A stretch of 64,000 nucleotides of DNA, taken from NCBI RefSeq assembly GCF_057098645.1, contig NZ_CM169472.1; one strand, written 5' to 3'. The position numbers were made by a program, and so were the translations under genes. Of the stretch, positions 20,126 through 41,546 are shown one piece after another (the first letter of the stretch is position 1; the number at the start of each line of letters is the position of its first letter). The notes below the pieces were generated by a model. The model saw nothing but the letters and a program-made list of their open reading frames with translations, made no database searches and was not told the DNA's origin.

Positions 20126-20321
20126 TTTTTTATGTGGATAAAAGATGCACTGGTTTGGATCCGAGCTACGGATCCAAACTTACTGATTAAAAATGATTTA
20201 ACTTTCCGATTTATTGATGGGCTGAAAATAGATTGGTCAGAAAAACAGTGGGGGCACAAAAGGGGGCATATTTCATTGTTGTGTTTTATTATTTGTTTTT
20301 TATCATTAACTTATTTTGATG

Positions 20322-20343
20322 TTTGAGTCCGGCCTTCGCACCA
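20322..20343 (+). repeat. attR: partial duplicate of the leuX 3' end
   Basis: tttgagtccggccttcgcacca versus leuX ttcgagtccggccttcggcacca. Confidence 0.7.
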
Positions 20344-23069: not shown

Positions 23070-23092
23070 AGCAATTTATTATATAGTCCATG

Positions 23093-23134
23093 TTATTCAC
23101 TGATTATATTATTGATAATATAATCAGTGAATAA
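23093..23134. terminator. Long perfect hairpin between the 682-aa gene and downstream minus-strand ORFs
   Basis: ttattcactgattatatta-ttga-taatataatcagtgaataa followed by a T7 run. Confidence 0.65.
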
Positions 23135-23691
23135 CTCTAATTTTTTTAATGTTGGGGGGTAGCCTGAAATTGAAATTGGTACTACGGAACGGTATGATCA
23201 TATCGCATCAAAATATCAAGGTAGTGATGATTTTCTACGCAACGATCCAGAAACGTGGATTTTATCATCACCATAAGCAATGGCAGCGACAACACCATCA
23301 ATTTCTATATCAAAGGTGGTGAAATGAATTAGAAAATTGTTTATTTAATCCATTAGCGATAAGTTTTATTGTTATTTAGCCGAGATATATTCCATTGAAA
23401 AAAGTAAATTGGCACTGATATTATATCAAATGGGAATAATCCTTTTGTAAATAAGCTGAGGAATGTGTTAATTCACATCCAGCGCCTTATAAACCGCATC
23501 AACCGGTTCTGAGTAAAAACTTACCTGAAACTTGGTAAACAACTCTGCCGGAACTGTTGGAATATCCATAGCCGAGGATATCGGCAACAGAACACGTTTT
23601 GCGCCGCTATCGAAGGCGAGTTGTAAACTAGCGGCAAGATCCTGCACTGATTATGTCAGCAATATTGAACATACTGCGATAGTTATCAACC

Positions 23692-24564: not shown

Positions 24565-24641
24565 TGATATCCCAGGCAGTGAAATAATTGCAATCATGCT
24601 CGCAAATTTTCTGCTGTTCAAGCCTGCAAGTGAAGATCCAT

Positions 24642-24914
24642 TGCTGTGTTGAGGGATCAAAAGACAACAAAAACTTATTGAAGAAATAATCTTCTGCTTT
24701 TTTGTCGAAATAATAGGCATTGATCTTGTCTATAGCTGCTAAATATTCTCCAGCCTCGTTGAGATCTTCAAAATAGCCATTGAAGATGTTCTGGTTAACA
24801 CCGCCAGTAACATAAGCCTTGCCGCTGTGTACAAAAGTCACATTACCCGCCATGCCCATCGGCGCGTGCGACATCAATTTATTGTTTTATTCATTGTGAC
24901 TGTCTCCTGTCTAC
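24642..24914 (-). pseudogene. Rearranged nanM fragment (internal codons fused to the nanM 5' leader)
   Basis: About 240 bp nearly identical to nanM 57959-58200 (MSHAPMGMAG..FDPSTQQW) joined directly to about 30 bp matching the nanM RBS/leader region 58541-58573; lacks the first about 148 codons and the 3' part. Confidence 0.7.
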
Positions 24915-25103: not shown

Positions 25104-26207
25104 TTACAAAGTTGCTGGCGTAAAGGCTCCGGTTTGTATTTCTTTAACCAGCTCACCCACGGTATATATTCTCCATCCTTCGACTTCGGCGGGAGTAAGG
25201 TTAACTGCAATTTTAAGGCCTGGCCATGCAGCTTCTACGGTTGCAATAATTTCATGTTCTGAGTTTTGAAGATCTAACCCAGGAACAGGAGGTTGAAAGC
25301 CTTTATGTTGCATCATATTAATATCACCATGCACTGATGGATCAGTCAGGTCATATATTTCATTCCAGGATTCTGCTTTTAATAACCCTTGTTGGGAACG
25401 TAAACGTTGAATGATAGCCATCTCAGCTTGGGTAACGAATATACCTTCGTGGAGGGGCTGTTTTCGATGGCAATCCTTGCACAGAACAAGAAGGTTTTCA
25501 TGGTGATTATCATATTTGATGCCATTTTTATGATGGACATGGCACAAGTTTTTGGCGGTTGATAAATTCACGCCACAATCATTACAAACATAATTGGCCT
25601 TTTCTCGTATTTCTTTAGATATTTCCTTCCAGTTTTCAACATACCCACTATTTGTTTTGTCATAGATACCCTTAGGCATATGACGAAAACAGGTACTATA
25701 ATCTGAAAAAAACTCATTTAATGAGAATGATTTAAAAATCTCTCTTTTTCGTTGTTTATCAATACTTCCTTTATAATTAAGTCGTTCGAGGCAATTCATA
25801 CATACCCGTAAATCAACATCCTGGCTCCGACCTGAACCATCATCAATTTCGAATAAACCATCTATGCGGTTAGTTGCATGATACCTTTCAAATCGATTTT
25901 TATGGCGCATTTCATCAAGAGTTCTGCACCAGGCAATATGAAAACGTTTTCCTTTTTCGCCATCTACGATAGCCGCATCATAACGCCCTGAATGGTCCCG
26001 AATATATAAAAGAACCTGGCGGCCATGATAAGAGATAAGCCCGCTACCAGGGTCAAGATCTTCGATACTAACTTCTTTACCCGTGGATAACTCAATATCT
26101 ATAGGATCAAAGTCAATAGGGGATTCATCCAGAAAAAAATCGACTCCTTCTGGTAACATTTTCTTCCCTAATTGAATAAGTTCTGAAAGGTCGATAGATA
26201 ATTTCAT
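25104..26207 (-). CDS. zorE: ZorE-like HNH endonuclease (Zorya type II)
   Basis: 367-aa ORF with HNH motif CNDCGVNLSTAKNLCHVHHKNG..NLLVLCKDCH; third gene of a MotA-like/MotB-like/HNH operon. Confidence 0.65.
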   Translation of the reverse strand: MKLSIDLSELIQLGKKMLPEGVDFFLDESPIDFDPIDIELSTGKEVSIEDLDPGSGLISYHGRQVLLYIRDHSGRYDAAIVDGEKGKRFHIAWCRTLDEMRHKNRFERYHATNRIDGLFEIDDGSGRSQDVDLRVCMNCLERLNYKGSIDKQRKREIFKSFSLNEFFSDYSTCFRHMPKGIYDKTNSGYVENWKEISKEIREKANYVCNDCGVNLSTAKNLCHVHHKNGIKYDNHHENLLVLCKDCHRKQPLHEGIFVTQAEMAIIQRLRSQQGLLKAESWNEIYDLTDPSVHGDINMMQHKGFQPPVPGLDLQNSEHEIIATVEAAWPGLKIAVNLTPAEVEGWRIYTVGELVKEIQTGAFTPATL

Positions 26208-26210
26208 CTC

Positions 26211-26918
26211 TTACTCCTGAATAATCTTTCTAATCTGCAACTCGGCATTTGTTACAACTTTGAAGGTGACACGACGAGAGCGATTAGGATCCTCCTTGCC
26301 GGTTTTATCAAGAATGGGATGTGCAGATGAATAACCTACTGCGGCAAATTTACTTTTAACCCATTGTTGGTGTGTCGCGATATTTTTTATGTCATAAACG
26401 TATTGTAATACTGCACGTGTACGACCTTGCGATAGTGCCATATTATTAAAATAAGCAATATCAGGATTCGTTGTTCCTGTCCAGTCAGTACTTGTGTGAC
26501 CTTCAATGCGGACTTCAGTAATATGTTCCTGATAATTATCTAGAACTTTTAGGTAGCGAGGAAAGAAATCGTCAAGAATGAGTTTAAACTTTGGTTTTAG
26601 CTCTGTGCTTCCTAAGCCAAATAAAACATCCGGTGATTTAAATCGAACCTCCAGAGTCTGTTTATCGATCTCTGCATCCCAGTCTTGTAAATCCTTTGCA
26701 AACTCAATATCCAGAGCATTATAAAGCTGTAACTGAGCATTCTCGTAGGCTACGGCAACTTCTTTAATTTTTTCTTTTTCAATACGTACGTAGTGCATAT
26801 AAGCAATAGATATGAACATAAAAACCATCATCAGCCCTGCCATTAGGTCTGACATGGATACCCAATGTTCATTATCTTGATCTTTTTTAGGTAATTGTTT
26901 CCCTATAATCTTATCCAT
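26211..26918 (-). CDS. zorB: ZorB-like MotB/OmpA-family protein (Zorya)
   Basis: 235 aa; N-terminal single TM helix with a preceding Asp (SMSDLMAGLMMVFMFISIAY); C-terminal OmpA-like peptidoglycan-binding region. Confidence 0.7.
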   Translation of the reverse strand: MDKIIGKQLPKKDQDNEHWVSMSDLMAGLMMVFMFISIAYMHYVRIEKEKIKEVAVAYENAQLQLYNALDIEFAKDLQDWDAEIDKQTLEVRFKSPDVLFGLGSTELKPKFKLILDDFFPRYLKVLDNYQEHITEVRIEGHTSTDWTGTTNPDIAYFNNMALSQGRTRAVLQYVYDIKNIATHQQWVKSKFAAVGYSSAHPILDKTGKEDPNRSRRVTFKVVTNAELQIRKIIQE

Positions 26919-26924
26919 GATCGA

Positions 26925-28577
26925 TTACCCGCGATGTTTATTAGCAGAAATTAATGCTTGTAACTGCCCCATAACTATTTGGTAATCTTTAATAAGTTTT
27001 TCATAGTTACCGACAAAACCTTTGCTGATTGAAAGCAGAGCATTACCTAATGATTGCATTTCACGGTTCATTTCACGTTCAGTTGCTTGCTCAAAAGCAT
27101 GTAACTGCTCGTTGATGGATAGAGCAAATTTTTCAATTGATTCTCTGACTTGAGAAGTCAGCCCTGCACTTGCCTTATCAAATGATGTCTGGATTGAATC
27201 AAACATATTATCGGCATTACTGGATAGTTGATGGTTAATCTTTTCACCAGTCTTACTGAACATATCAATCACATTCGTCGTATTTTGTTCCATATTTCTA
27301 TGCAATTCTTTCGAGTGCGACTCTAGTGATTTCAGGAATTCTTCACCACTTTGTTTCATTTCAGTAATTGTTTCACCTAACGTGCTGGTTAGGGTTTCGG
27401 AGGAATTGCTGACATCATGTGCCATCGAGGCAAATGCTTGTTGTGTTTGGGTAACCGATTGTCTGAATCCTTCGGTACCTTCATCCAGGGCAACGCGCAT
27501 TGAATCTGCATTAAGAAGTATTTGCTGGCTGGTTTGCTCAAGAGATGCACTAACATTTGCAGCTCCGGATTTCAGCAGTTCACCCACTTCAGCCATTTTG
27601 TTCTGTATTTCAGGTAATACGGTTGTAGCTTTATCGCGGATGGCGACAAAGGTTTCTAAATGGCGGGAGAGTTCGCTGATTTGATGTTGGTTCACCTGAA
27701 GCACTTCACGCAGTTCAGACATAGCCAGAGGAATTTCTTTACATTCTTCCCAAATCCCTGCAACCGCAGTTTTTGTTTCAACCAGGGACTCGACACTTTG
27801 TTGATATTGTTCTGACATCTGCTCAATTTGCGTTTTATAATTTCCCTGCCACTCAACAAGTTTTTTTACAGAGGCATCAAGAGCTTTAAAGTTTTCACCA
27901 AACTGTTCAGTTAAATTTTGATTAAAATCAATAATGACTTGTCGCAAAGCATCAATAATTTGTTCTGTAGCACCTTTTGCCATTAGATCTGCAAATTGTT
28001 CAAGTTGTTCCCAAAGCTTATTACTGAAATGAGTGTGATTAGCTAATTGTGCCTGCGAGGAATCGCTAATATCAGTACGTAGTAATTTTATTTGAGCAAT
28101 AAGAGAACCTTCACTATCACCGTTAATACCCGAGACTAATTTAGTCAGAGTCTGGTTCTGCTCTTTTAATTCATGATAGATATGTTCAGGTGTAACAGAT
28201 TCAGGGTTATTTTCTGCTAACGCACTTCGTTTATTGGCAAAAAAGAAAGCATCCATTCCATTAAATAAAATGGCAAAAAACATACCTACAATGCTTGTAA
28301 TGAATGCTGTTTTTAGGCCACCTAATAATACGGGGATGCTGGTATCAATACTTTCGGTATTAAAATTGAGTAAACCAATAATAATACCAATGAAAGTACC
28401 CAGAATACCTAATGCCCCCATTAAGGTTGGAGCATATTCTCTAAACTTACTATGTATATTTTTTTTGTCACACCACCACGCTGATAAAAATACGAATATA
28501 ACAGCCCAGATGAAAATATTGGTGATCAGTGTAGAGTCTATCGATTGAAACAACTGCTCAAAAAGCTGCGCTAACAT
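26925..28577 (-). CDS. zorA: ZorA-like MotA/ExbB-family membrane protein with long coiled-coil tail (Zorya)
   Basis: N-terminal TM helices (..LMGALGILGTFIGIIIGL.., ..LKTAFITSIVGMFFAILF..) followed by about 400 aa of Q/E-rich predicted coiled coil. Start chosen at MLAQLFEQ (ATG 28575-28577); the ORF track allows 28634. Confidence 0.7.
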   Translation of the reverse strand: MLAQLFEQLFQSIDSTLITNIFIWAVIFVFLSAWWCDKKNIHSKFREYAPTLMGALGILGTFIGIIIGLLNFNTESIDTSIPVLLGGLKTAFITSIVGMFFAILFNGMDAFFFANKRSALAENNPESVTPEHIYHELKEQNQTLTKLVSGINGDSEGSLIAQIKLLRTDISDSSQAQLANHTHFSNKLWEQLEQFADLMAKGATEQIIDALRQVIIDFNQNLTEQFGENFKALDASVKKLVEWQGNYKTQIEQMSEQYQQSVESLVETKTAVAGIWEECKEIPLAMSELREVLQVNQHQISELSRHLETFVAIRDKATTVLPEIQNKMAEVGELLKSGAANVSASLEQTSQQILLNADSMRVALDEGTEGFRQSVTQTQQAFASMAHDVSNSSETLTSTLGETITEMKQSGEEFLKSLESHSKELHRNMEQNTTNVIDMFSKTGEKINHQLSSNADNMFDSIQTSFDKASAGLTSQVRESIEKFALSINEQLHAFEQATEREMNREMQSLGNALLSISKGFVGNYEKLIKDYQIVMGQLQALISANKHRG

Positions 28578-28788
28578 TTTGATACCTGTGTAAATAATGG
28601 ATAGTTGTAATCGTTTAAAAAATAAACAAAACACACATAATTTATATGGTTAAGTTCGGTGTAGCGCTCATGATTGTAACAAGTTTTTTCGAGATATAAA
28701 TGATTTGTCTCATTTTTAGCGAGTTCATCGGGTTGAGCTTTTTTATGATGATAGTAACCTGTTACGAATTGTATCAAAGGAAGGCAGG

Positions 28789-31700
28789 TTGCTTGTGAAA
28801 ACTCCAGTTAACCCACTTTTGCAATGGCTTAATATGTTTTTTAGTCGCCGTTCATTATCCGGAGCTGATGGACGGGCGTTATATGCTTACCGTTGTACTG
28901 ATACAGAGTACGAAAGTTTGGCAGAACTACTGCGTACATATGCCCCCCGTAGTTATCCAAGAACGATATTCATTTCCTATAGCGATGTTCTATTTAGCAT
29001 ATATGCCGCAGAGTTTATCCGCCGGACTCATACGGTCGGACACCCTAAATGGGACACAATTTTAGATTCTATTAACTGGAAAGTTCCGTATGTTCATCGA
29101 CAGAAGCTGGTTAATGATGGCATTCGCTACTGGAAAAGAAAGATAAGAAACCTGGGACAAGCTTCGGGTTATCTGCATACACTGGCTTGTGAAGGTGGTT
29201 TGCCTATCCGCATGATTGAAAATGAGAGCGGTTATTTGATTACCTATTTCAGAAGGATATATCAGGCGCTTCGTGGGCAATCATCTCAATATCCTGCCGC
29301 TAAAATTGCACAAGAATTAGGCGATACGATTCCTGTCACAATGCAAAACGAACTGGTCTATGAAATAGCCGGTGAATTCTGCGAGACTCTCTGCCGATTA
29401 CTTAGTGAGCATCCTCCTCATAGCAGTGATCCCGTTTCTGCATTACGTAAGCTCTCTCCAGACTGGCATCTTCAACTTCCACTCGTTCTCCCCGAAGCGA
29501 ATGCTGCAGAGATTGTAAGGCGATTACTTTCTCAATCTTCTGAAATACGCAGTGCAAGTAGTCTTCAGGTTGAAAGAATCTGGGTCGATGTTGATGACAG
29601 TTGGTATTGCGATGCCCGGTTCCGATTCCCGGCCACAATGCGTACAGAACAGTTAACCTCTTTGTTTGAATGCCATATTCAGCCGGAGCAGACCCGACTC
29701 ATCATTTCAGGAAAATGGAAAAATGGCGGGGCAAGGTTGGCAATGCTAAGCCGTTATGAGCAGCAAGATTGGCGGGTCGAGTTATTACCTATTGCGATGC
29801 AAAAACTCTCTGGTGCAGATGCAATGGCCGAAATCTCATTGTCGCTTCATGAAGGTCCAATTCTGTTAGGTCACACAATTCCAAAAGGCGGTTATGAACT
29901 TACTGAAGAACTTCCCTGGGTTTTTGAAGCGATGAATGAGAGTGAATCGCAGCTAAAACTTGTTGGTATGGGGTCTGTGAGTTCCAGGCTAAATGCTCTG
30001 TTTATTTCGCTACCGAAAAATAGCCATTTAGATATTAGTGGAGAAGGTGAGTTTGATATCCCAAGGTTGCTGAAAAACAGTGAACGCAGCTTAACTAAAA
30101 TAAGTGGAGTATTTAGCGTTGTTTTACATGATGGTGCTGTTTGTACAATTCGCACCCAGCAACTTTATGATTCTGCGATTGAATATTATATTAAATCGAC
30201 AGAAGTTGAACTGGTTAAATCGGATTATCCTGTCCATCGAGCCTGGCCGAAGATCGGTTGGAAAAAGGATCTGCAATATGGCATTGTACCGGAGAAAGAA
30301 CTTTTTTGGCGTTCCATTCGTTCAGGTAATAATGCCTGGTATTCTGTCGCATCAGAAATGCCAAAAGGACAGATAGAAGTCCGGCGAATAGTTAATGATG
30401 AGGTTTTATTTAGCGGTAAAGTTGTAGTTTTACCAGCAGACTTCGATATTAATATTATACCTGAGAGTGCTCAGCAAGGCATTATTATGCTTTCTGGTAT
30501 AACGGATACTAGAATTGATAAATATTCAAACAATGAAAAAGTAACACTTAAGTCCGATTATTCACAAAACGAGTGTGCTATTTATTATAATTCATCGCTG
30601 ATGCTGGAAAATACCGTTGATTTACGGGTCTCCTGGAAAGATGGTTCTAATCTTAAACTATTATTACCTAAGCCGGTTAGCGGTGGCCGATTTGTAACTA
30701 ATGATGGTTCTGTTCATTTTGATGGTGTGGCATCTATAGCACATTTGCATGGAATAGATGCTGAGTTATTAACCATATCATGTGCTGGAAGAGGATATCT
30801 TAATATCGAGTTATTGGATGAAAATCCAGTAGCTGAAAAATTCCGCTATTTACATGCCGACCTTCCTCTTTTATCAGGACGCAATGACAAATTACAACAA
30901 ATTTCACTTTATGAGAACTATAATTTGCTAAATGCTATGCTGGCATGTGCATGGAACAGCAATAGTACATTATGTGTTGATTTTTACTCTGACAGATTTG
31001 GAAAGGATAAAGCAACACTCAATATTAAACGCTACGATGGTAGTTTTATTGAACACGATCAAGGGTTACTGGTTGATATAAAAAATTCTGTTGTTTTTCC
31101 TGCAAATAGAATAGACGAACTGGTTGTTGATGCTATTTCTCTTAAGAATCCTGGCTTACACATATCATTGTTAAAAAAAGATGAGTTTGCTTATGATCTT
31201 TCAGCTCTGAATGTTCAGGATAGTCCATGGTTAATTGTGGGAAAACTTGATGGTACAGCTCGCATTGCACCAGTAATTAAATGGATGCTACCTGTATTGC
31301 AGACAAATGATTTATTACTAAATGCTCTATGCGAAGCAGACCCAGAACAGCGCAAAAAAAATTTTAATGAGCTAATTTTTGAAATAGATAACAACCCATT
31401 GCAAAATTATTGCTGTTTATTAACAGAGTATATTAAGAAATACAAAATGAATAATGGCTTATCCTTGCTGGATCTGGACTTGTTCAGAGGTATTTCGAGT
31501 AATTACCGCGTGGTTGTTCAATTGTTAATATCATCATGTCTTTCTGGTGATAGCGATACGATTTATGATATACAGGAAGAATTACCCTTTTCATGGGGAT
31601 GGATTCCCGTTTCAATCTGGAAAGATGTTTTCCAAAAATGTTGGACTTATCTGGAGAAACAGATTAACGATAAAACATTAGCATTACATATATTGCAACC

Positions 31701-32148
31701 CTTTATTGCTTTTATGAACCATCGTGCACATATCGATCGTCGGCTGGCTCCGATTGCGAATATGTTACTTACATATAGTGAGAGCCTACCAACCGGTTGT
31801 GATGTATTGCCAACTGTTAGTCGTGAGCAGTTTAATGAAGCTAAACAGATGCTATTAAGGAACCCCGACAGCTTTGGGCGTATCAGTATCTTCCCTAAAG
31901 AACTTTGGTCTAGTGCTATTACTCCAGAGTTAAAATCTGTTTTTAATAAGCTTTGGATTGAAGATAAATATCACTCACGGCTTGAAAAACGTTTTAATTT
32001 GATGTTAGTCGCAGCGCTGTTAACCCAAAAAGATAATAACCTGATACATCAACTGTCTGCGCTTTTTGAATTTCACTATCAGCAAGCCCCACAGCAATTA
32101 GGGGTAATCTATCAATATTATTTTGAACAAGCAGGAGTATGTCATTGA
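28789..32148 (+). CDS. Large hypothetical protein (1119 aa), DruH-like by size and position; first gene of a two-gene operon with a giant helicase
   Basis: TTG start with AGGAAGG RBS; no P-loop or other motif recognised; stop overlaps the start of the downstream helicase gene. Confidence 0.5.
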   Translation: MLVKTPVNPLLQWLNMFFSRRSLSGADGRALYAYRCTDTEYESLAELLRTYAPRSYPRTIFISYSDVLFSIYAAEFIRRTHTVGHPKWDTILDSINWKVPYVHRQKLVNDGIRYWKRKIRNLGQASGYLHTLACEGGLPIRMIENESGYLITYFRRIYQALRGQSSQYPAAKIAQELGDTIPVTMQNELVYEIAGEFCETLCRLLSEHPPHSSDPVSALRKLSPDWHLQLPLVLPEANAAEIVRRLLSQSSEIRSASSLQVERIWVDVDDSWYCDARFRFPATMRTEQLTSLFECHIQPEQTRLIISGKWKNGGARLAMLSRYEQQDWRVELLPIAMQKLSGADAMAEISLSLHEGPILLGHTIPKGGYELTEELPWVFEAMNESESQLKLVGMGSVSSRLNALFISLPKNSHLDISGEGEFDIPRLLKNSERSLTKISGVFSVVLHDGAVCTIRTQQLYDSAIEYYIKSTEVELVKSDYPVHRAWPKIGWKKDLQYGIVPEKELFWRSIRSGNNAWYSVASEMPKGQIEVRRIVNDEVLFSGKVVVLPADFDINIIPESAQQGIIMLSGITDTRIDKYSNNEKVTLKSDYSQNECAIYYNSSLMLENTVDLRVSWKDGSNLKLLLPKPVSGGRFVTNDGSVHFDGVASIAHLHGIDAELLTISCAGRGYLNIELLDENPVAEKFRYLHADLPLLSGRNDKLQQISLYENYNLLNAMLACAWNSNSTLCVDFYSDRFGKDKATLNIKRYDGSFIEHDQGLLVDIKNSVVFPANRIDELVVDAISLKNPGLHISLLKKDEFAYDLSALNVQDSPWLIVGKLDGTARIAPVIKWMLPVLQTNDLLLNALCEADPEQRKKNFNELIFEIDNNPLQNYCCLLTEYIKKYKMNNGLSLLDLDLFRGISSNYRVVVQLLISSCLSGDSDTIYDIQEELPFSWGWIPVSIWKDVFQKCWTYLEKQINDKTLALHILQPFIAFMNHRAHIDRRLAPIANMLLTYSESLPTGCDVLPTVSREQFNEAKQMLLRNPDSFGRISIFPKELWSSAITPELKSVFNKLWIEDKYHSRLEKRFNLMLVAALLTQKDNNLIHQLSALFEFHYQQAPQQLGVIYQYYFEQAGVCH

Positions 32149-35100
32149 TGGACGTTCAGCAACTGCATTATGCGCCACTTCTAAATCAGCTTCATCAGCG
32201 TGCGGTGAGGTCGGTGGTAAGTCAGTTGGCATTGCGGAGCAAGTCGTTGACTCATTATCTGGAATCACAATATTTTCAGCCTCCCGGTCAGGAGGGGTCA
32301 CTGCTTGCAGACCCGGTATTCGAAAGTACATTCGGCTGGATGCCTGCGGATGAAACAATGGAGGATTTGCGGGACAAGCTGATCTCCAGCCCGCTGGTTG
32401 ATGCATTGAGCAAAGCGCCAGTGCCATTTCGTCATCAACTTACTGCGTGGCGAACGATTCTGGAAGACAAAAAATCCTTGTTAGTGAGCAGCGGTACGGG
32501 ATCCGGGAAAACAGAATGCTTTATGGTACCGGTTCTGGAAGATCTTATTCGTCAGCAAAAATCGACCCGCCAGTCACTAACAGGGACACAAGCTATTTTC
32601 TTGTATCCGTTAAATGCATTAATTAACAGCCAACAGGAGCGGCTTCGCGAATGGACGCGCGGATTTAAGGGGAAAATACGCTTCGCGCTATATAATGGCG
32701 AAACCCGGCATACCAAATACGAAATTCAGGAAGATCAGTTGAAAGTACCTGAACAAGCTTTGAGTCGGGAAGCCATTTATGAAGCACCACCTTCCATCAT
32801 GGTGACGAATACCACCATGCTGGAATATATGCTGATTCGTCGTAAAGATGCCCCAATCATCGAAAAGTCTCAGGGGATGTTAAAGTATATCGTCCTGGAT
32901 GAAGCCCATAGTTATATTGGTTCTCAGGCTGCTGAGTTAGCGCTGCTTTTACGTCGTGTTATGCAGGCTTTCAATGTTGGACCCGGCACAGATAAACCTG
33001 TGCAGATTATCGCGACCTCTGCCACTATTGGTGAAGACTCTCCTGAAGGTAATAAGGAGCTTGCTAAATTTGTCGCTGATCTCGCGGGCGTTACAGAACG
33101 TGATGTCAAAGTGGTTCGCGGTTATCGACAAATACCGCGGGTATCGGAGTCGCTGATTCGTCATGAATACCCCACATCTTTAACTTCTCTTAAATCCCTG
33201 AGCCCTCAGGATCTTTACCAACAGCTTTGTCATTACCGTGTGGCCCAGCAATTGCGTCAGGCGTTAACTCATCCCGGACGGCAGGCAGTACGTTTGAGTG
33301 AGTTGCTCAATGTTGCCAGAAGAACCTGGCCAGATATTAATCACCGTGAGCTACTGCAACTCCTCGATCTAATGGCAAGATCGCGAGAAGGTGAACTGGC
33401 TTTTACGCCATTACGTATGCATGGGTTTATCAGAACACTGGCGGGTCTATGGGCATGTTCAAACAAACAATGCTCACATAAAGCACATGAATTAAATCAG
33501 AGTGACTGGCCATTTGGTCAGGTATGGTTTGAGCAGCGCCAATATTGTGACTGTGGAGCGCCGGTATTTGAAGTTTTACGTTGCTCCGGGTGTGGTTCAG
33601 CTTATTTGTCTGCCAAAGAGGAGATGCGCGGTGATGGAACGAACTGGTTGGTAGCGCAACCAGCCGCTGCCGAAGTGGATGAGTTTGCTCTTGATGTAGA
33701 TGTTTATTCTGAAGATGAAGACAACGACGAATTAGACAATAACTCTCAATTTGATCGTCTGATTGCGAGCGATGGTGAAAAATATATCATTTCACTGGAA
33801 GAAACGACGGCGGGGAAAATTGATAGTGAAGCGCAAAAGCACTATGAAATAAACCTGTTAAGACCGGAATCTCGAGGTGAGGGACGCAATAACTCCTTTG
33901 CTTGTGTTTGCTGTGGTGACACTCAACGGAAAAATAATCCTTTATTCCGTCCGCTTCGGCTCGGCGCGCCCTTTTTTTTAAATGAAATTATTCCTACTCT
34001 GCTGGAGTTTTCTCCATTACCGCAAACAAGAGAAGAGCAGTTAGGACCGTTTAATGGTCGACGCTTGCTCACCTTTACGGATTCGCGTCAGGGTACCGCT
34101 CGCATTTCAGCCCGCTTACAGCAGGATGCCGATAAAGCGACGTTGCGAGCTCTTTGTTACCAGGAACTGGCAAATATTACAGAGCCTTCAGCAAAACTCA
34201 GCCCGGCACACTGTGCACTGTTAGAGAAAGTTATTAGCCAGTTTTCTGTCCTCCCTTTAAAAAATTCCATCGACGCGCTGAAAAAAGCGATGGCTGCGAA
34301 TGAGGAGCTTAGCCCGACGGACATTCAGGCACTTAAAATTATTGAGCCGATGGTGAGTTCCTTAAGCACGGAGCATGCTGAAGCGATGCAAATACTTCAG
34401 GCTAACTCTGGCAATCAGCAGAAGAAAACCATGTCATGGCAAACGCTGTCTGAACAGCTGGTTGGCAGTGTGGACCTTGCCGATAGAATGAGAGGCAGTT
34501 TTAAAGAATTGTCTGGGCTTGATCTTACTAAACAACAGTTTGCAGATTTTTGTTTATACAGCGAGTTTGGTCGCCGCCCTAAAAATGCCTGGACCCTCGA
34601 AAGTCTGGGTCTGGTAGCCATTCACTATCCATTCATTGATAAAGTTACAACCTGCCCGCAGGACTGGAAGACATTATTACCCGATCCCGATAAGCAATTA
34701 GCGGAATGGCGTAATTTATTGAAGATTACTCTTGATTTCTTTATCCGTGAAAACAGTGCCGTTTTTTACGAAAACGAGCAATACCCTCGCTGGATGGGGG
34801 CACGTTTCCCGGTAAAAATGCTCCAGGGGCCAGATAAAAAAAACAAAGGGCAGAAACGTGATCAACTTTGGCCACAAATACGCGATCGCCATTATAACCG
34901 GGTCATTAAGCTATTAATCGCAGTCTTTCCGGCAATACAACCTGAGCAGGCTCACTGGAAATCGTTAGTTAACCACTTAATGATTGAGGTCTGGGATGCA
35001 ATTCGACCCTGCTTACGTCAGTTTGAGTCGGGTTATCAGCTGGATATTAAACAACAAGCTGAATTTTACAGTCCAAAGCAAGTGTGGCGTTGCCCCTATA

Positions 35101-38100
35101 CTCGACGTGCGTTAGACGTCACGTTGCTGGGATACTCTCCGTATTTGCCGGGTAGCAAAGAAATTGCACCTGAAAAAGCAGTGTTGATTGAAATGCCTGA
35201 GCTTCCTGTACGTCACTGGCGTTTGTCTGGTGGTGGAGAAATCGCCCGAGAAGAACGTCTGGAGTGGCTGGAAAGTAATGCGCTGATTCAACATGCCCGC
35301 GAGGAAGGATTATGGTCTACTCGCAGCGACCGACTGGCCCTGAAAGATAGCTGGTATCGTCTGGAGGAACACTCTGCGCAGAGAACGCCTGAGCAGAACC
35401 AGTTTAATGAAAAACAATTTAAGTCAGGCAAAGTTAATGTGCTGAACTGTTCCACGACCATGGAGATGGGGGTGGATATTGGTGGTATGAGTTTGGTGGC
35501 AATGAACAACGTTCCTCCAGCGCCGGCAAATTATTTGCAACGTGCAGGTCGCGCGGGGCGTCGTGGAGAGAGTGCATCTGCTGCCATTACGTTATGTAAA
35601 AACACGGCGCATGGAATGGAGGTATTCAAAGACCCCCTCTGGGCGTTCAACACTACTGCCAGTGCGCCACGGGTTCGTTTTGGGAGCAGTAGCATTGTTC
35701 AACGACATGTTAATGCCCAGGTTTTAGGTCTGTTTTTACGAGCTGAAGTTCCTGATGCGACAAAACTGAGTTGCAAATGGTTCTTTGAAGGTGATGAGAG
35801 CCAGTGTCTTCGTTTTCTTCATTGGTTAAATCACCAGGCCGATGAGCTGGCGGATAAACTTAAACGCCTTACTCAGGGAACCGTCCTGATGTCATTGACG
35901 GCAACCCAGCTCTTGACCCGCACACAAGCAATGATGCAGCAGGTTGATATCCGCTGGAGAAGCCAACTTGCGATACTGTTGGAAAATATCGAAGCGTTGA
36001 AGGCGGATAACAGCGCGTGGGAAGAAACGCCAGCAGGTAAAGCCATCGCTTATCAGCTTCGTGATTATCGCGGTGCATATCTGTTTTCTAAACTCATTAG
36101 TGAAGCGTTCCTGCCGGGGCATGGTTTCCCGGTTGGCGTAGTCAATTTCAATTATCTGACGGCAGATGAGCTGGAAAAACGTCGCGCAATAAAAGCCACT
36201 CAGGCTGACCCTAATGAAGGGGGAGAAAGCTTTTCTCGTCGTATTGAAAAATTGCCCAGCCGTGATTTGCCTACAGCATTACGCGAGTATGCGCCTGGTG
36301 CAGATGTGGTATTGGGCGGAAAAGTATATCGTTCCTCGGGCATTATGCTTGGCAAGGTGCTTGCCAGCGGGCAGGAGCTGTCAGGCGATCATCATATTCC
36401 GTGGTTCTGGCATTGCCGTAAATGTGGTGCGGGGGCAACCAGTACTACCCATCCTGTCGAATGTAGTCACTGCAAAGCGGATATACAGCAACTTGATGTG
36501 AAGCGTTATTTACAGCCTGTTGGTTTTGCGACAGATATTCGTTATCAGGCACATAATGATGTATCCATGCCTGCACAACTTCCCTGGAAAGATCCACGTG
36601 TTCTTGTACCGTCTTCGGTGTGGGTTTCTTTACCCGATGCTGGGCTAGGACGTTACCGTTTTAGCCATAGTGGGGAATTGTTCCACTTCAGTGAAGGGGA
36701 ATTTGGGCACGGCTACGCAATTTGCCTCTCATGTGGTCGGGCAGAATCTCAAACTCAACCCCAGCGTACCCCTGAAAATCTAAAGAACCCAGAGCGGGAA
36801 AATACGCATTACCTGTTGCGAGGGGGCAGTAACGATCGTCAGGGGAGCAATAAATTGTGCCACGGTCATGTGCATAAAGATCTGTGGTTGGGGTATAGCA
36901 GTCGTACAGATATGGTTGAGCTGCAACTTAATGATGATAATGGCCTGTTGATCCGTGATGAGGTTGCCGCGCGTTCCCTTGCGGTCGCTTTGCGTGAAGG
37001 GTTAGCGCATAAATTGGGTATCGAAAATACTGAGCTGGGCGTGACGACGCAGCAAGCGCGCGATATCAATGGCTATACCGGATATTCCATCTTCATATAC
37101 GACAATAATGCGGGTGGTGCAGGTTATGCAGTGCAATTGATCGACCATTGGGCTGATGTCTTTAATTACGCCAGAAAATTGCTCGATTGCAGTTGCGATA
37201 AATTTTGTCACCACTGCTTGCTCAGCTACGACAGTCAGCATTATGTCAACAGATTAGATCGTCACCATGCATTAACCCTGCTTACCAATGTACGGTTGCA
37301 GCGACTTAACCTCGCGCCAGAATATCAGTACTTCGGCGATGGTAGCCGGGTTGAAACTAACCCTCTGAGTTTACGTATTGCGCAATGCCTGAACAGCGAG
37401 ATTTATGACTCCTGCTCGCTGGTTCTTGCGGGGCCGCAGGAACAGTGGGACTTTGCCCAATGGCCATTATTTAAAGAGTTGCTCCAGTTTGCCTCCTCCG
37501 GTGGGAATGTTGAGTTGCTGGTGGCCACGCCGCTGGAAAACTTAACTGATAGCTCCAGACATCAGCTTTCCGCGTTGGCGGCGATGCCGGGAGGACGCTT
37601 ACAAGTGAAATCCATTGCCACTGCGCAACTCATGCAAGGAAAGGGGCGCTGGCTTGCGCAGGTGACTCGCGAAGGGCAAAGCCAACAGTGGGCCGCAGAC
37701 GACAGCGCTACCGTTGCCCCTGGTGAATTATGGGGACAAAGTGCGTCTTCACCAGTAGTGACACTTAAAGGAACGTCCGGAAAAACCTTCTCGGGTCAGA
37801 CCTTAAGTGCAGAAGATTTACTGCCCGCCTTACCCACCGGGGCGGTGCGCATCAATCTCTGTGAACAACTGGACGGGCCGCTGGAAGGTTTTGGTTCGCG
37901 TTTCTGGTCGTTAGTCACGCAACAGCACGCTGGCTGGAAGCAGGCATTTACCCGCCACAAAGAGATAACGCATGTTGAGTACAGCGATCGTTATCTTAAT
38001 AGCCCATTCACGGCGCGTTTGTTAGGTGAAATCTTAACCGAGCTGGTTGAACAGGGAATGGCGGAACGCGCCAGCCTCACTGTTTGCGTCAAAAAATTGG

Positions 38101-38462
38101 ATTACAACTCTCGCCAACACGACGCTCTCTATAACGCGTGGCTTAATGAGGAAGATCGTCAGCAGGTTGTGACCACTTTACTTGAAGAAGGATATCTGGG
38201 GCCTGCGTGGCCGGGAGCAATTAGCTGGTTAACGGGGGATAACCAGAGTACGGAGCATGGACGAGAACTGACAGTCACCTTCAGCGATGGCAGTCAGCAT
38301 TATGTCCTGCTCGACATGGGGCTTAGCTACTGGCGCTGTATTGAAGATACCTTCTTTGATTTTGCCCTGCGAGTACCGCAGCAAGTTGAACGGCTGGCAA
38401 ACACGCGAGCGCGAGCTGTTGCCCCGGGTAATGACCTTAGGAGTTATATTATCGCTGGATAA
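32148..38462 (+). CDS. Giant DEAD/DEAH-box helicase with C-terminal Cys-rich (DUF1998-like) region; DruE-like
   Basis: About 2100 aa; motif I SSGTGSGKTECF, motif II VLDEAHSY, motif III TSAT, motif VI QRAGRAGRRGE at about aa 1130, cysteine clusters CRKCGAG..CSHC and CDKFCHHC. Start ATG 32148 (AGGAG 10 nt upstream); an in-frame ATG at 32139 is alternative. Confidence 0.75.
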   Translation: MDVQQLHYAPLLNQLHQRAVRSVVSQLALRSKSLTHYLESQYFQPPGQEGSLLADPVFESTFGWMPADETMEDLRDKLISSPLVDALSKAPVPFRHQLTAWRTILEDKKSLLVSSGTGSGKTECFMVPVLEDLIRQQKSTRQSLTGTQAIFLYPLNALINSQQERLREWTRGFKGKIRFALYNGETRHTKYEIQEDQLKVPEQALSREAIYEAPPSIMVTNTTMLEYMLIRRKDAPIIEKSQGMLKYIVLDEAHSYIGSQAAELALLLRRVMQAFNVGPGTDKPVQIIATSATIGEDSPEGNKELAKFVADLAGVTERDVKVVRGYRQIPRVSESLIRHEYPTSLTSLKSLSPQDLYQQLCHYRVAQQLRQALTHPGRQAVRLSELLNVARRTWPDINHRELLQLLDLMARSREGELAFTPLRMHGFIRTLAGLWACSNKQCSHKAHELNQSDWPFGQVWFEQRQYCDCGAPVFEVLRCSGCGSAYLSAKEEMRGDGTNWLVAQPAAAEVDEFALDVDVYSEDEDNDELDNNSQFDRLIASDGEKYIISLEETTAGKIDSEAQKHYEINLLRPESRGEGRNNSFACVCCGDTQRKNNPLFRPLRLGAPFFLNEIIPTLLEFSPLPQTREEQLGPFNGRRLLTFTDSRQGTARISARLQQDADKATLRALCYQELANITEPSAKLSPAHCALLEKVISQFSVLPLKNSIDALKKAMAANEELSPTDIQALKIIEPMVSSLSTEHAEAMQILQANSGNQQKKTMSWQTLSEQLVGSVDLADRMRGSFKELSGLDLTKQQFADFCLYSEFGRRPKNAWTLESLGLVAIHYPFIDKVTTCPQDWKTLLPDPDKQLAEWRNLLKITLDFFIRENSAVFYENEQYPRWMGARFPVKMLQGPDKKNKGQKRDQLWPQIRDRHYNRVIKLLIAVFPAIQPEQAHWKSLVNHLMIEVWDAIRPCLRQFESGYQLDIKQQAEFYSPKQVWRCPYTRRALDVTLLGYSPYLPGSKEIAPEKAVLIEMPELPVRHWRLSGGGEIAREERLEWLESNALIQHAREEGLWSTRSDRLALKDSWYRLEEHSAQRTPEQNQFNEKQFKSGKVNVLNCSTTMEMGVDIGGMSLVAMNNVPPAPANYLQRAGRAGRRGESASAAITLCKNTAHGMEVFKDPLWAFNTTASAPRVRFGSSSIVQRHVNAQVLGLFLRAEVPDATKLSCKWFFEGDESQCLRFLHWLNHQADELADKLKRLTQGTVLMSLTATQLLTRTQAMMQQVDIRWRSQLAILLENIEALKADNSAWEETPAGKAIAYQLRDYRGAYLFSKLISEAFLPGHGFPVGVVNFNYLTADELEKRRAIKATQADPNEGGESFSRRIEKLPSRDLPTALREYAPGADVVLGGKVYRSSGIMLGKVLASGQELSGDHHIPWFWHCRKCGAGATSTTHPVECSHCKADIQQLDVKRYLQPVGFATDIRYQAHNDVSMPAQLPWKDPRVLVPSSVWVSLPDAGLGRYRFSHSGELFHFSEGEFGHGYAICLSCGRAESQTQPQRTPENLKNPERENTHYLLRGGSNDRQGSNKLCHGHVHKDLWLGYSSRTDMVELQLNDDNGLLIRDEVAARSLAVALREGLAHKLGIENTELGVTTQQARDINGYTGYSIFIYDNNAGGAGYAVQLIDHWADVFNYARKLLDCSCDKFCHHCLLSYDSQHYVNRLDRHHALTLLTNVRLQRLNLAPEYQYFGDGSRVETNPLSLRIAQCLNSEIYDSCSLVLAGPQEQWDFAQWPLFKELLQFASSGGNVELLVATPLENLTDSSRHQLSALAAMPGGRLQVKSIATAQLMQGKGRWLAQVTREGQSQQWAADDSATVAPGELWGQSASSPVVTLKGTSGKTFSGQTLSAEDLLPALPTGAVRINLCEQLDGPLEGFGSRFWSLVTQQHAGWKQAFTRHKEITHVEYSDRYLNSPFTARLLGEILTELVEQGMAERASLTVCVKKLDYNSRQHDALYNAWLNEEDRQQVVTTLLEEGYLGPAWPGAISWLTGDNQSTEHGRELTVTFSDGSQHYVLLDMGLSYWRCIEDTFFDFALRVPQQVERLANTRARAVAPGNDLRSYIIAG

Positions 38463-38582
38463 ATAATTGCTCCCCTGGGGATATCTTCCAGGGGAGTTGA
38501 CCCAGCTCACTTTTTAATAATTTTTGTTTGAAAATCATGCGCAATTTATGCGCATTCCCTCCCATTTTGTCACTTTGCCGGG

Positions 38583-38615
38583 GGCCTTCATGATATCTTT
38601 AAGGCCCTCTTTTTT
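38583..38615 (+). terminator. Intrinsic terminator between the two large operons
   Basis: ggcctt-catgatatcttt-aaggcc hairpin followed by ctcttttttt; a second hairpin at 38470-38496. Confidence 0.55.
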
Positions 38616-38685
38616 ATCGCAGTGTGCCGCGCCACATTTTTCAGGATGACGTTACCGCCACTGCCCCAAATAGACAGAAAAACCG

Positions 38686-41544
38686 ATGAATAAGCAAAAT
38701 TATGCACCTGGTATGCGGGTGGTTATTCGTGATGCCGAATGGCGTATTCGCCGGGCGGATGACAGTGGTGATGGTGGGTATTTGCTGACCTGCGATGGTA
38801 TTTCAGAGCTTGTGCGCGGTAAAGAAGGGTTATTTCTGACCAAACTGGAACAAAAAGTAGAGATCCTGGATCCCGCAAAAACGCATTTGGTGGAAGATGA
38901 ATCCGCCAATTATCAAGCGGCGCAGTTGTATATCGAAAGTCAGTTACGCCAACGCGTACCGACAGACAGTAAAGTCCATTTTGGTCATCTGGCGGCGATG
39001 GATTCCATGCCGTTTCAGCTCGATCCTACGCGGATGGCGCTGGCACAACCGCGTCAGCGGATACTCATTGCCGACGCTGTCGGTCTGGGTAAAACGCTGG
39101 AAGCGGGTATTCTGGTTTCGGAGCTGATCCGTCGTGGGCGCGGAAAACGTATTCTGGTTCTGGCGGTCAAATCGATGCTGACACAATTCCAGAAGGAGTT
39201 CTGGAGCCGTTTTGCGATCCCATTGACCCGCCTGGATTCTGCTGGTTTACAAAAGGTGCGTAACCGCATCCCAACCAACCACAACCCGTTCCACTATTTT
39301 GACAAGACCATTATCTCCATCGATACGCTGAAACAAGACATTGAATATCGTCACCATCTGGAAAATGCCTGGTGGGATATTATTGTCATTGATGAGGCCC
39401 ATAACGTCGCAGAACGTGGAACCAGTTCGTTACGCAGTAAACTGGCAAAACTGCTCGCCGGGCGTAGCGATACGCTGATTATGCTTTCAGCAACGCCGCA
39501 TGATGGTAAGGCTGAAAGTTTTGCCAGCCTGATGAACATGCTTGACCCGACGGCGATCGCCAACCCGAAAGAGTATGAATACGCCGACTTTGCCGATAAA
39601 AATCTGGTTGTCCGTCGCTTCAAAAAAGACGTGAAAGATCAGATGTCCGGCGAGTTCCCCGAGCGCAATATTGTCAAATTGACTCGCCTGGCATCCGGTG
39701 CCGAAGAAGAAGCATACCGTCGTCTGGTTGAGAGCCAGTTCCGTGATGATGACGATGAACAGGCCCAGTCTAACAAAGGTCGTCTGTTCAAGATAACCCT
39801 CGAAAAAGCGCTATTTTCCAGCCCGATGGCGTGTGCCAGCGTCGTGGCGAATCGTCTGAAGCGTCTTGAGAGCCGTAAAGATCATAATAGCCAGAGCCAG
39901 ATCAACGAACTGGAGTCATTGCTGTTGGCGCTGAATAACATTGATGCCAGCCAGTTTAGCAAATACCAGTTGCTGCTCGACACCATCCGAAAAGACCTCG
40001 CCTGGAAAGCCAATAACACGGAAGATCGCCTGGTGATCTTCACCGAAAGTATTAAAACGCTGGAGTTCCTCGAACAGCAACTGCGAGCGGATCTGAAATT
40101 GAAAGATGACCAGATCGCCACGCTGCGCGGCGATCAGGGCGATACGGTATTGATGGAAACCGTAGAAGCCTTTGGTAAAACGCAGTCGCCGTTGCGTCTT
40201 CTGGTTTGTTCGGATGTGGCATCTGAAGGGATCAACTTGCATCACCTTAGCCACAAAATGATTCACTTTGATATTCCGTGGTCGTTGATGGTATTCCAGC
40301 AACGTAACGGGCGTATTGACCGCTATGGGCAAAAACATCAGCCCCAAATCCGCTATCTGCTTACTGAGGCCAGCGAACCACAGATCAATGGCGATATGCG
40401 CGTACTGGAAGTGTTGATCAACAAAGACGAACAGGCGCAGAAGAACATTGGGGACAGTTCGGAGTTTACCGGCAAATTTACCCAGGAAGAGGAAGAAGAG
40501 CAGGTTGCAGAGTTCATGATGCAGGATGATGGTGCCAGCCTGTTTGATCAACTGCTGAACAGCAACGTCTCGGAAAGCGCCGAACACGATCTGTTTGGCG
40601 AAATATGCAGTGCGGTTTCCAGCGATGCCTCAATGGTCACCGAAGCAGACACCAGCTTGTTTGCCAGCGAACAGGCGTACTGCGAAAGAGCATTGGGTTA
40701 CCTGAAAGCCAGTGGTCAAACTATCCAGTATGAAACCTTGCCTGATAATACCTTGTCGCTGGTGGCACCGGAGGAGTTACGCCGCCGCTTCAACCAGCTA
40801 CCGCCTGAAATCGCCCCGGAGAACTGGCAGCTCTATTTAAGTCAGGATAAAACCGTCATCACCGACGCGATTGCACGCGCTCGCGGTGAGCAACATGCCT
40901 GGCCCGATGTGCAGTATCTCTGGCAAATCAACCCGGTAGTGCAGTGGCTGGACGATAAAATCTCTTCGGCTTTTGGTCGTCATCAGGCACCAGTTATCCG
41001 TCTGCCATACCTGCTTGAACCCGATGAAGATCACTTCATTCTTTCCGGGTTATTCCCGAACCGTAAATCACATCCGATGGTGAACCCGTGGATAGTGGTG
41101 AGCTTTAACCGTGAATCGCTAATCGGCAGTCAGCCATTCGCTGAGTTTTTACAACGTCATCCGCAGTTGAGTAACAAGCTGACTAACAGCGGCGGTAAAG
41201 ATCGTAATCACCAACGCCAGCAGGATTTACTTGAAGCGGCTATTGCTCATGCCCGGGAGGTATTCATCCATGATCGGAATGCGTTTGAAACGCACATTAA
41301 CCAGCAACTGAATGAGCATCTGCAAAAGCTGGACGTTTTGCGTGGGCGGCAGTTGAGCCAACTTGAGCTGGATTTTGCCGATAATAAACAGCAATTGTCA
41401 GTCAAGCAGAGCCGTAAAGAGCAGAGACAACGCGAAATCGAACACAATTTTGACAGCTATATCGAATGGATTGAGGACACCATGACGACTGAAAAAGAAC
41501 CCTACATTCAGGTAATTGCTGTTATCACCGGAGCGGAGGGTTAA
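38686..41544 (+). CDS. SNF2-family helicase (DrmD-like)
   Basis: 952 aa; motif I ADAVGLGKTLEAG, DEAH box VIDEAHNV, LSATPH, helicase C-terminal motif QQRNGRIDRYGQK. Confidence 0.8.
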   Translation: MNKQNYAPGMRVVIRDAEWRIRRADDSGDGGYLLTCDGISELVRGKEGLFLTKLEQKVEILDPAKTHLVEDESANYQAAQLYIESQLRQRVPTDSKVHFGHLAAMDSMPFQLDPTRMALAQPRQRILIADAVGLGKTLEAGILVSELIRRGRGKRILVLAVKSMLTQFQKEFWSRFAIPLTRLDSAGLQKVRNRIPTNHNPFHYFDKTIISIDTLKQDIEYRHHLENAWWDIIVIDEAHNVAERGTSSLRSKLAKLLAGRSDTLIMLSATPHDGKAESFASLMNMLDPTAIANPKEYEYADFADKNLVVRRFKKDVKDQMSGEFPERNIVKLTRLASGAEEEAYRRLVESQFRDDDDEQAQSNKGRLFKITLEKALFSSPMACASVVANRLKRLESRKDHNSQSQINELESLLLALNNIDASQFSKYQLLLDTIRKDLAWKANNTEDRLVIFTESIKTLEFLEQQLRADLKLKDDQIATLRGDQGDTVLMETVEAFGKTQSPLRLLVCSDVASEGINLHHLSHKMIHFDIPWSLMVFQQRNGRIDRYGQKHQPQIRYLLTEASEPQINGDMRVLEVLINKDEQAQKNIGDSSEFTGKFTQEEEEEQVAEFMMQDDGASLFDQLLNSNVSESAEHDLFGEICSAVSSDASMVTEADTSLFASEQAYCERALGYLKASGQTIQYETLPDNTLSLVAPEELRRRFNQLPPEIAPENWQLYLSQDKTVITDAIARARGEQHAWPDVQYLWQINPVVQWLDDKISSAFGRHQAPVIRLPYLLEPDEDHFILSGLFPNRKSHPMVNPWIVVSFNRESLIGSQPFAEFLQRHPQLSNKLTNSGGKDRNHQRQQDLLEAAIAHAREVFIHDRNAFETHINQQLNEHLQKLDVLRGRQLSQLELDFADNKQQLSVKQSRKEQRQREIEHNFDSYIEWIEDTMTTEKEPYIQVIAVITGAEG

Positions 41545-41546
41545 TC

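Follow-up and report, generated by a model that had tools for sequence, protein, structure and literature searches.

A type III-A Druantia anti-phage operon, druH-druE, in a leuX-adjacent defence island

We analysed a stretch of 64,000 nucleotides (contig NZ_CM169472.1 of NCBI RefSeq assembly GCF_057098645.1; this whole stretch is hereafter called the window), focusing on a two-gene operon at positions 28789–38462 that had been read from the bare sequence as resembling Druantia type III. There is very little doubt in our minds that these genes are the druH-druE operon (druHE) of a type III-A Druantia anti-phage system. The identification is founded on the PADLOC, NCBIfam and Pfam matches, the phospholipase D (PLD)-like fold at the end of DruE, the near-identity to proteins deposited in the PDB, the identity of the DNA to Escherichia coli O145:H28 chromosomes and the fit of published residue numbers, and nothing speaks against it. 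The operon lies in a leuX-adjacent island of the O-island 172 type, with a divergent Zorya II system (zorA2-B2-E) on one side and an ARMADA II system (armABCD) downstream.

This system is already known. At least six papers and preprints have dealt with its characterisation, PDB entries exist for it, and the allele described here is identical to those studied. The locus, its neighbours, the phage spectrum, the structures and several mechanistic models have all been reported in preprints of 2025–2026, one journal paper and the PDB. The practical value of the present analysis is that of a clean positive control, in which Druantia III was correctly recognised by eye. It bears on one scientific question, the disputed nuclease activity of the PLD-like module and of DruH, to which the locus adds modest conservation evidence only.

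Identity of DruH and DruE

Two open reading frames of 3.4 and 6.3 kb, far larger than expected by chance and each with a full-length profile match, were found on the plus strand exactly where the original prediction had placed them, at 28789–32148 and 32139–38462. The first is druH, read from a TTG codon into a protein of 1119 residues that belongs to the YjiT / STY4851-ECs_5259 family and is the partner essential to DruE. It matched the PADLOC profile DruH3 (PDLC00041) over profile positions 1–1117 of 1117 with E = 0 and 2554.9 bits, and the NCBIfam family YjiT_fam (NF038336) with 986.8 bits against a cut-off of 150. The search of PDB sequences returned 9TUD ('DruH', 1119 residues) with 2583.6 bits overall, identical over residues ~5–960 in the part of the alignment printed, and the protein is 100% identical to a cluster of 2966 members. 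DruH had been described as lacking any recognisable catalytic motif, which holds against the Pfam-A copy we used; this local library, which gave no domain, is older than PF27201 (YjiT_N) and PF27205 (YjiT_2nd), the two domains that DruH homologues bear in precomputed tables. The start of druH is ambiguous between TTG 28789 (1119 residues) and GTG 28795 (1117 residues): the GTG is the start in the PADLOC profile and in several orthologues, and RefSeq and the published papers give 1119 residues.

The second gene, druE (32148–38462), encodes a superfamily 2 (SF2) DExH helicase of the YprA/MrfA family with accessory domains, a MrfA Zn-binding (MZB) domain and, at its C-terminus, a tandem PLD-like module, the composition of Druantia subtype III-A. 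It matched PADLOC DruE3 (PDLC00037) over profile positions 4–2051 of 2055 with E = 0 and 2182.5 bits; the DruE1 and DruE2 profiles gave 575 and 362 bits. Its PDB matches, 9TU7–9TUC ('DEAD/DEAH box helicase', 4897 bits), cover residues 1–2104, and these entries were deposited together with 9TUD by Himpich et al. (bioRxiv 10.64898/2026.05.13.724758). The type III assignment, originally made from the pairing and sizes of the two proteins, is thus borne out by end-to-end profile matches on both sides.

Two in-frame ATG codons compete as the start of druE, at 32139 (2107 residues) and at 32148 (2104 residues). The latter is most likely the real start because the AGGAG at 32133–32137 is placed 10 nt upstream of it, whereas a single nucleotide separates this AGGAG from ATG 32139, because RefSeq annotates the gene from 32148, because the lengths stated by Hu et al. 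for the E. coli proteins are 1119 residues (DruH) and 2104 residues (DruE), and because the published residue numbering fits: all 14 published DruE residue numbers checked (G118, G120, K121, R165, D251, E252, R601, R1135, R1138, R1139, E1343, C1681, C1683 and C1687) point to the right amino acids only in the 2104-residue numbering, which is used throughout. The helicase of 2107 residues first reported exists as an open reading frame, and the better-supported start makes the protein three residues shorter.

The RecA1/DEAD domain of DruE (residues 95–295; 32430–33032; Pfam PF00270, E = 6.4e-24) holds motif I GSGKT (residues 118–122; 32499–32513), motif II DEAH (residues 251–254; 32898–32909) and motif III SAT (residues 291–293), all invariant among four DruE orthologues, which were taken from contigs encoding distant DruH proteins. 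The RecA2/Helicase_C signature (residues 1069–1140; 35352–35567; PF00271, E = 2e-12) includes motif VI, QRAGRAGRR at about residues 1132–1140, in which R1135, R1138 and R1139 were confirmed. All four motifs had been recognised by eye; their span of about 1100 residues comes down to about 1020, and it is this long because the RecA1 and RecA2 signatures are set apart by an insertion of some 770 residues made up of accessory domains. The Cys-rich, zinc-ribbon-like region noticed beyond the helicase is the MZB domain (residues 1612–1691; 36981–37220; PF09369, formerly DUF1998; E = 7.1e-12), with the cysteine cluster C1681/C1683/C1687/C1690. All these features are on the plus strand.

Druantia III is defined by an SF2 DExH helicase of about 2000 residues with DUF1998/MZB and by a YjiT-family DruH of about 1100 residues encoded directly upstream on the same strand, and both are present here. 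Experiments with identical or near-identical E. coli proteins have shown anti-phage protection that needs both genes (Li et al.; Himpich et al.; Hu et al.; Wu et al.).

Conserved sites and the proposed mechanism

The C-terminal module of DruE had escaped the original prediction. It comprises two tandem PLD-like domains at residues ~1724–2104 (about 380 residues; 37317–38459, plus strand), the boundary being that of Himpich et al. Our AlphaFold2 model of residues 1701–2104 had a predicted local distance difference test score (pLDDT) of 72.5. When this model was compared with the PDB by Foldseek, the 31 matches with E ≤ 0.001, and most of the weaker ones, belonged to the PLD superfamily (best E = 1.5e-5); the top matches were PLD, PssA (phosphatidylserine synthase), vaccinia F13, PLD3, SauUSI, MITD1, Zucchini, NucT and Tdp1, with two-domain PLDs among them. 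The model thus predicts a PLD-like fold for the C-terminus and, after the MZB domain, the two PLD-like domains that distinguish subtype III-A. The structures of the near-identical protein have been described as containing PLD1 and PLD2 (Himpich et al.). In DruE, Pfam-A detected no PLD domain, and a regular-expression search found neither HxK(x)4D in the protein nor any HxK past residue 1700. The call had to be made by fold because the pocket is of an HxR type without the canonical motif: it consists of D1947-R1948-Y1949, R1989, H2037-x-R2039 and D2056. D1947, R1948, R1989, H2037, R2039 and D2056 are invariant in the four orthologues at 35–54% identity, which argues that the pocket is under constraint. 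When the C-terminus by itself was used in a word-index search for homologues, the outcome was no more than five matches, which were fragments or unrelated.

In DruH, conservation is concentrated in the first ~250 residues. Across 27 divergent homologues (down to ~21% identity), the most conserved motif of the family is DGRALYAYR at residues 27–35 (28867–28893, plus strand), in which L31, Y32 and Y34 were kept in 27 of 27 sequences, R35 in 26 and R29 in 20; outside the motif, E75 was kept in all 27 and R79 in 25, and G136-G137-L138-P139 belongs to the same conserved set. These residues are proposed to line an N-terminal DNA cleft, and the conservation pattern agrees with such a cleft being functional. 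The mutation of R22 or K28 in the Pseudomonas aeruginosa DruH (PaDruH) abolishes defence (Loeff et al.).

The published reports agree on a considerable part of the mechanism. Protection is direct and non-abortive, acts against many double-stranded DNA phages, and needs both genes, which together are sufficient (Li et al., 10.1101/2025.09.22.677730; Himpich et al.; Hu et al.). DruE dimerises and binds the exposed single-stranded DNA (ssDNA) of 3'-tailed or forked molecules, which it unwinds in the 3'-to-5' direction with ATP (Wu et al., PMC13192584; Himpich et al.; Hu et al.; Loeff et al.). Defence depends on DruE motifs I, II and VI and on the MZB cysteines, and the mutation of C1681/C1683/C1687 abolishes it (Himpich et al.). 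According to one report (PMC13316683), a type III system of Mycolicibacterium smegmatis prevents phage DNA from circularising and replicating.

From these reports and the features above, the following course of events may be proposed. As shown for identical or near-identical proteins, DruE, a helicase of YprA/MrfA type that forms dimers, loads on exposed ssDNA at 3' tails or forks and unwinds the adjoining duplex 3'-to-5' at the expense of ATP. The ssDNA might come from intermediates of phage replication or recombination or from the ends of linear genomes, the circular host chromosome presumably exposing none. DruH, a multi-Ig-domain protein of the YjiT family with the conserved N-terminal cleft, might bind or trim ssDNA, sense a late phage protein, or do both, and thereby license DruE. 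The phage genome might then be destroyed by the PLD-like module of DruE, or be immobilised and passed to other nucleases such as ZorE and RecBCD.

Several points weigh against parts of this scheme. The cutting of DNA by the DruE PLD domains is disputed: Wu et al. and Loeff et al. found DruE nuclease activity that is required for defence, whereas Himpich et al., working with the same protein as encoded here, did not observe nuclease activity reproducibly and found that defence does not need the PLD domains. The role of DruH is equally contested, having been described as a phage-protein sensor whose nicking activity depends on the dimer and which forms no stable complex with DruE (Wu et al.), as a 3'-5' exonuclease that recruits and complexes with DruE (Loeff et al.), as an ATP-inhibited ssDNA binder (Hu et al.) and as a scaffold (Himpich et al.). 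N672, Y733, D735, R1064 and K1067, which have been reported to contact ATP in the E. coli DruH dimer, vary widely across the 27 divergent homologues. The papers on mechanism are all preprints of 2026 or very recent, and the function given here rests on that literature.

Type III-A Druantia might possibly have no nuclease output of its own, a reading we hold to be rather unlikely while giving it real weight. DruE would then only unwind, DruH would coat ssDNA once ATP falls, and the immobilised genome would be left to ZorE, RecBCD and ARMADA, with the PLD-like domains serving cross-talk or assembly. This is in line with the immobilisation proposed by Hu et al., with the findings of Himpich et al. 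on the E. coli protein, with a pocket that lacks canonical HxK(x)4D and resembles the non-catalytic MITD1, and with the tight linkage that the pair shows to both Zorya II and ARMADA II within E. coli, where 498 genomes have the contiguous array as compared with 505 that have druHE. It is difficult to reconcile with the >10^4–10^6-fold protection that druHE confers on MG1655 without its neighbours (Himpich et al.), with the ATP/Mg-dependent degradation of DNA by DruE and the loss of defence in pocket mutants (Wu et al.; Loeff et al.), and with pocket residues that remain invariant even in orthologues at 35% identity, as expected of a constrained site.

We would also raise, tentatively and as something we rather doubt, that the near-invariant N-terminal residues of DruH (DGRxLYAYR at 27–35, E75, R79 and GGLP at 136–139) could be the catalytic centre of a nuclease without a known fold or motif. 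The ATP switch of the E. coli protein would then be a lineage-specific add-on, since its contact residues are not conserved family-wide. If true, the conflicting preprints might be reconciled as descriptions of a single conserved ssDNA-processing activity with clade-specific regulation. That DruH is a nuclease was already proposed by Loeff et al., and only the conservation contrast is new here.

Operon boundaries and the surrounding island

Upstream, an AT-rich divergent intergenic region of 211 nt (28578–28788) separates the druH start from that of zorA2 (28577, minus strand, as set by the NCBIfam alignment and RefSeq) and presumably contains the druHE promoter. Promoter-like hexamers on the plus strand were found at 28571–28598 and 28614–28641 as consensus matches only. 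The ribosome-binding site AAAGGAAGG at 28776–28784, already recognised by eye, is placed ahead of both candidate starts of druH. The overlap between the stop of druH and the start of druE is likewise real: in the TGATG at 32146–32150 (plus strand), the druH stop (32146–32148) and the druE start (32148–32150) share one base, which is consistent with translational coupling; the alternative ATG 32139 would overlap the druH frame by 10 nt up to the end of the TGA.

Downstream, druE is followed by a spacer of 223 nt (38463–38685) before armA, and the hairpins originally taken as terminators are present in it on the plus strand. The first (38469–38497) has a 12-bp stem CUCCCCUGGGGA...UCUUCCAGGGGAG and begins 7 nt beyond the stop codon. 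The second resembles an intrinsic terminator (38580–38617), with a GC-rich stem GGGGGCCUU/AAGGCCCUC (38580–38609) followed by UUUUUUAU, and lies 68 nt upstream of the armA start at 38686. The region downstream of druE folds with a z-score of -2.95. The consensus terminator scan listed neither hairpin, both being found by folding; it missed the GC-rich one because its loop is longer than the limit of the scan. A search of 28789–38700 against Rfam detected no RNA family.

The independence of the pair from its neighbours, which the original prediction had favoured, is supported by several lines of evidence. In three distant metagenomic loci with DruH 22–33% identical, a YjiT-family gene immediately precedes a DEAD/YjiV_N/Helicase_C/MZB gene for 2060–2138 residues on the same strand, the two genes overlapping or lying 12 nt apart; ARMADA is absent from all three loci, and a ZorA-like gene is nearby only in L002. 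In experiments, druHE expressed from its native promoter was by itself enough to protect E. coli MG1655 (Himpich et al.; Hu et al.), ARMADA II is functional when cloned alone (PMC12458937), and single-system deletions in EDL933 and ATCC 8739 leave the other system active, with synergy in addition (Li et al., 10.1101/2025.09.22.677730; PMC12458937). These data support druHE as an independent evolutionary and functional unit that synergises with its neighbours. The dependence on the downstream four-gene operon that would have refuted the original prediction is therefore not borne out.

It is accordingly very improbable that druH and druE are merely the first two genes of a co-transcribed, mutually dependent six-gene druHE-armABCD unit, or of a nine-gene Zorya-Druantia-ARMADA unit. 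One might be led to this idea by the common strand of druHE and armABCD, by the paralogy of the YprA-family helicases DruE and ArmC (34% identity over RecA1, 23% over RecA2-MZB), by the published synergy between the neighbouring systems, and by the contiguous zorE-to-armB block, which is nearly as frequent as druHE itself. The spacer with its hairpins, one of them followed by a U-run, the activity of each system when cloned alone, the outcome of the single-system deletions and the distant loci without ARMADA have already largely refuted it.

The three distant loci also have their own surroundings. In L002, the pair adjoins a GmrSD-like gene and the ZorA-like gene (11533–14975); in L003, a Dcm methylase and Vsr (8048–9693); and in L004, a Y4kK/peptidase S8 gene and an AAA ATPase (19785–23299). 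An association of Druantia III with Zorya-like genes may thus recur beyond E. coli.

The DNA of the locus is 100.0% identical to E. coli O145:H28 chromosomes. Among 5426 complete E. coli genomes, druHE (at least 80% of the pair) was found in 505, zorABE in 529, armABCD in 520 and the contiguous zorE-to-armB block in 498. The array of Zorya II together with Druantia III and ARMADA II of O-island 172 has already been published (Li et al., 10.1101/2025.09.22.677730; PMC12458937). In the O145 strain RM9872, RefSeq shows leuX followed by a hypothetical gene, then a phosphorothioate-DNA restriction endonuclease, the divergent zorE-zorB2-zorA2, the druHE pair and finally four large genes.

In the window, Zorya II occupies 25104–28577 on the minus strand, and a complete ARMADA type II operon occupies 38686–54909 on the plus strand. 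The latter consists of armA (38686–41544; SNF2/DrmD-like helicase, 952 residues), armB (41547–46457; type IIG/PglX-like methyltransferase, 1636 residues), armC (46457–52798; YprA-family helicase of 2113 residues, with a ZorE-like HNH region at residues 2021–2096) and armD (52795–54909; GajB/UvrD-like helicase, 704 residues), all on the plus strand. Here armB is intact; in RM9872 it is annotated as frameshifted despite a rounded DNA identity of 100.0% (16224 vs 16222 bases).

At the other end, a P4-like satellite prophage is inserted at leuX (5923–20343), from tRNA-Leu(CAA) at 5923–6007 to 20323–20343, where the 3' end of the tRNA is imperfectly repeated. The repeat, GAGTCCGGCCTTC-GCACCA with a 1-nt deletion, was found by BLAST against RM9872; an ungapped search for a second leuX 3' end had returned only the tRNA itself. 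The satellite encodes an integrase (6160–7446), psu (10338–10910), delta (10984–11484), a sid-like gene (11481–12233), the alpha primase (17452–19785) and the immunity RNAs C4/isrK/c4-a1b1 (13082–13358). An IS21-family element (13835–16253; istA 548 and istB 332 residues) between the immunity region and the primase gene probably inactivates it. The integrase-psu hotspot holds a type II restriction-modification pair (7912–10021, GC ~0.38), in which a restriction endonuclease of 272 residues (full-length match to PDLC03471, 653.7 bits) adjoins a convergent Dcm-type C5 methyltransferase of 417 residues that matches DruM2 profiles and is not part of Druantia. We considered the defence array as cargo of this satellite and rejected it, as the array lies beyond the attR-like repeat: RM9872 has the array without the 14.3-kb satellite, and the Zorya-Druantia-ARMADA array is therefore outside the satellite and in tandem with it.

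The first gene past the attR-like repeat, heading the defence array, is an open reading frame of 682 residues (21021–23069, plus strand, GC ~0.36; RefSeq hypothetical WP_000416999.1) that gave no match in Pfam, PADLOC, NCBIfam, PHROGs or PDB sequences and is a candidate uncharacterised defence gene. A phosphorothioated-DNA-binding restriction endonuclease with an HNH C-terminus (23692–24720, minus strand; NF045808, 437.7 bits) adjoins Zorya II, and in the RM9872 annotation this gene is flanked by nanM- and sialate-esterase-like fragments. A repeat of 245 nt at 24637–24881 recurs at 57957–58201. The right side of the island (55600–64000) is degraded, with a transposase (60162–61142), an integrase fragment (61913–62545) and minus-strand phage-like open reading frames without assigned function (56403–58662); a second full leuX repeat marking the island end was not found within the window.

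Comparison with known systems

The core of DruE resembles the Bacillus subtilis repair helicase MrfA/YprA (PDB 6ZNP, E = 1.4e-19), with which it shares the RecA1-RecA2-OB-MZB core and the 3'-to-5' polarity. MrfA has 751 residues, lacks the insertion domains, the PLD module and a DruH partner, and functions in repair, not in defence. Although this resemblance, and the toxicity that mitomycin C confers on the system (Himpich et al.), could suggest a housekeeping DNA-repair module of an MrfA/YprA-like helicase and a partner, we rejected that classification and regard it as next to impossible, because druHE is accessory, present on an island of only ~9% of E. coli genomes with other defence systems on both flanks, and because its deletion causes phage sensitivity and no growth defect (Li et al.), so that phage-challenge data already contradict it.

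Three other defence systems were compared and rejected. ARMADA II is defined by a strict order of a BrxHII/SNF2-like helicase, a PglX-like methyltransferase, a YprA-like helicase and a GajB-like helicase; this order was found at 38686–54909, and druHE is its neighbour and not a member. ArmC shares the YprA-family core and MZB with DruE and ends in an HNH-like region instead of PLD domains. Its partners are the SNF2 helicase, the PglX-like methyltransferase and the GajB-like helicase, whereas Druantia III works without a methyltransferase and does not depend on host methylation (Himpich et al.). DISARM class 1 would have separate drmA, drmB (DUF1998) and drmC (PLD) genes with drmD and the drmMI methyltransferase, all within a single operon. 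DruE can be likened to a fusion of DrmA, DrmB and DrmC (Li et al.); here the helicase, MZB and PLD-like parts are indeed fused, the druHE operon has no methyltransferase, and the DrmD-like and DrmMI-like genes lie in the separate ARMADA II operon downstream.

Druantia I (DruABCDE), II (DruM-F-G-E) and III-B have the signature DruE helicase with MZB/DUF1998 in common with the present system. In types I and II the partner genes differ and there is only one nuclease-like domain, which is not of the PLD kind (Li et al.), and DruE of III-B is without PLD domains (Himpich et al.). Types I and II were rejected here, as no druA-D, druF or druG homologue adjoins the pair: the operon contains no type I (druA-D) or type II (druM, druF, druG) partner, and its neighbours are the divergent zorA2 and armA. 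The sole DruM-like match is the Dcm methyltransferase of the P4-like satellite (8768–10021), 19 kb away beside the type II restriction endonuclease, and it scores higher with MTase_II (350 bits) than with DruM (268 bits).

The type III Druantia of P. aeruginosa (Loeff, Chanez, Jinek 2026) is a divergent orthologue with the same two-gene architecture and domain set. Judged from the spacing of the motifs, R22 and K28 of PaDruH, essential there, would correspond to R29 and R35 of the E. coli protein, its E64 to E75, and D1917-R1918-Y1919, H1999/R2001 and S2022 of PaDruE to D1947-R1948-Y1949, H2037/R2039 and S2060. Its reported biochemistry, in which DruH acts as a 3'-5' exonuclease, DruE and DruH form a stable complex that depends on DNA, and the PLD nuclease is essential, is unlike what three groups reported for the E. 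coli proteins. The closest relatives are the Druantia III-A systems of E. coli EDL933 (Z5897/Z5898), ATCC 8739, ECOR19 and NCTC12923, which have the same genes, lengths, island context and residue numbering. The present locus shows no difference of substance from them; here the 14.3-kb P4-like satellite stands between leuX and the array, whereas in the O145 strain RM9872 leuX directly abuts the array.

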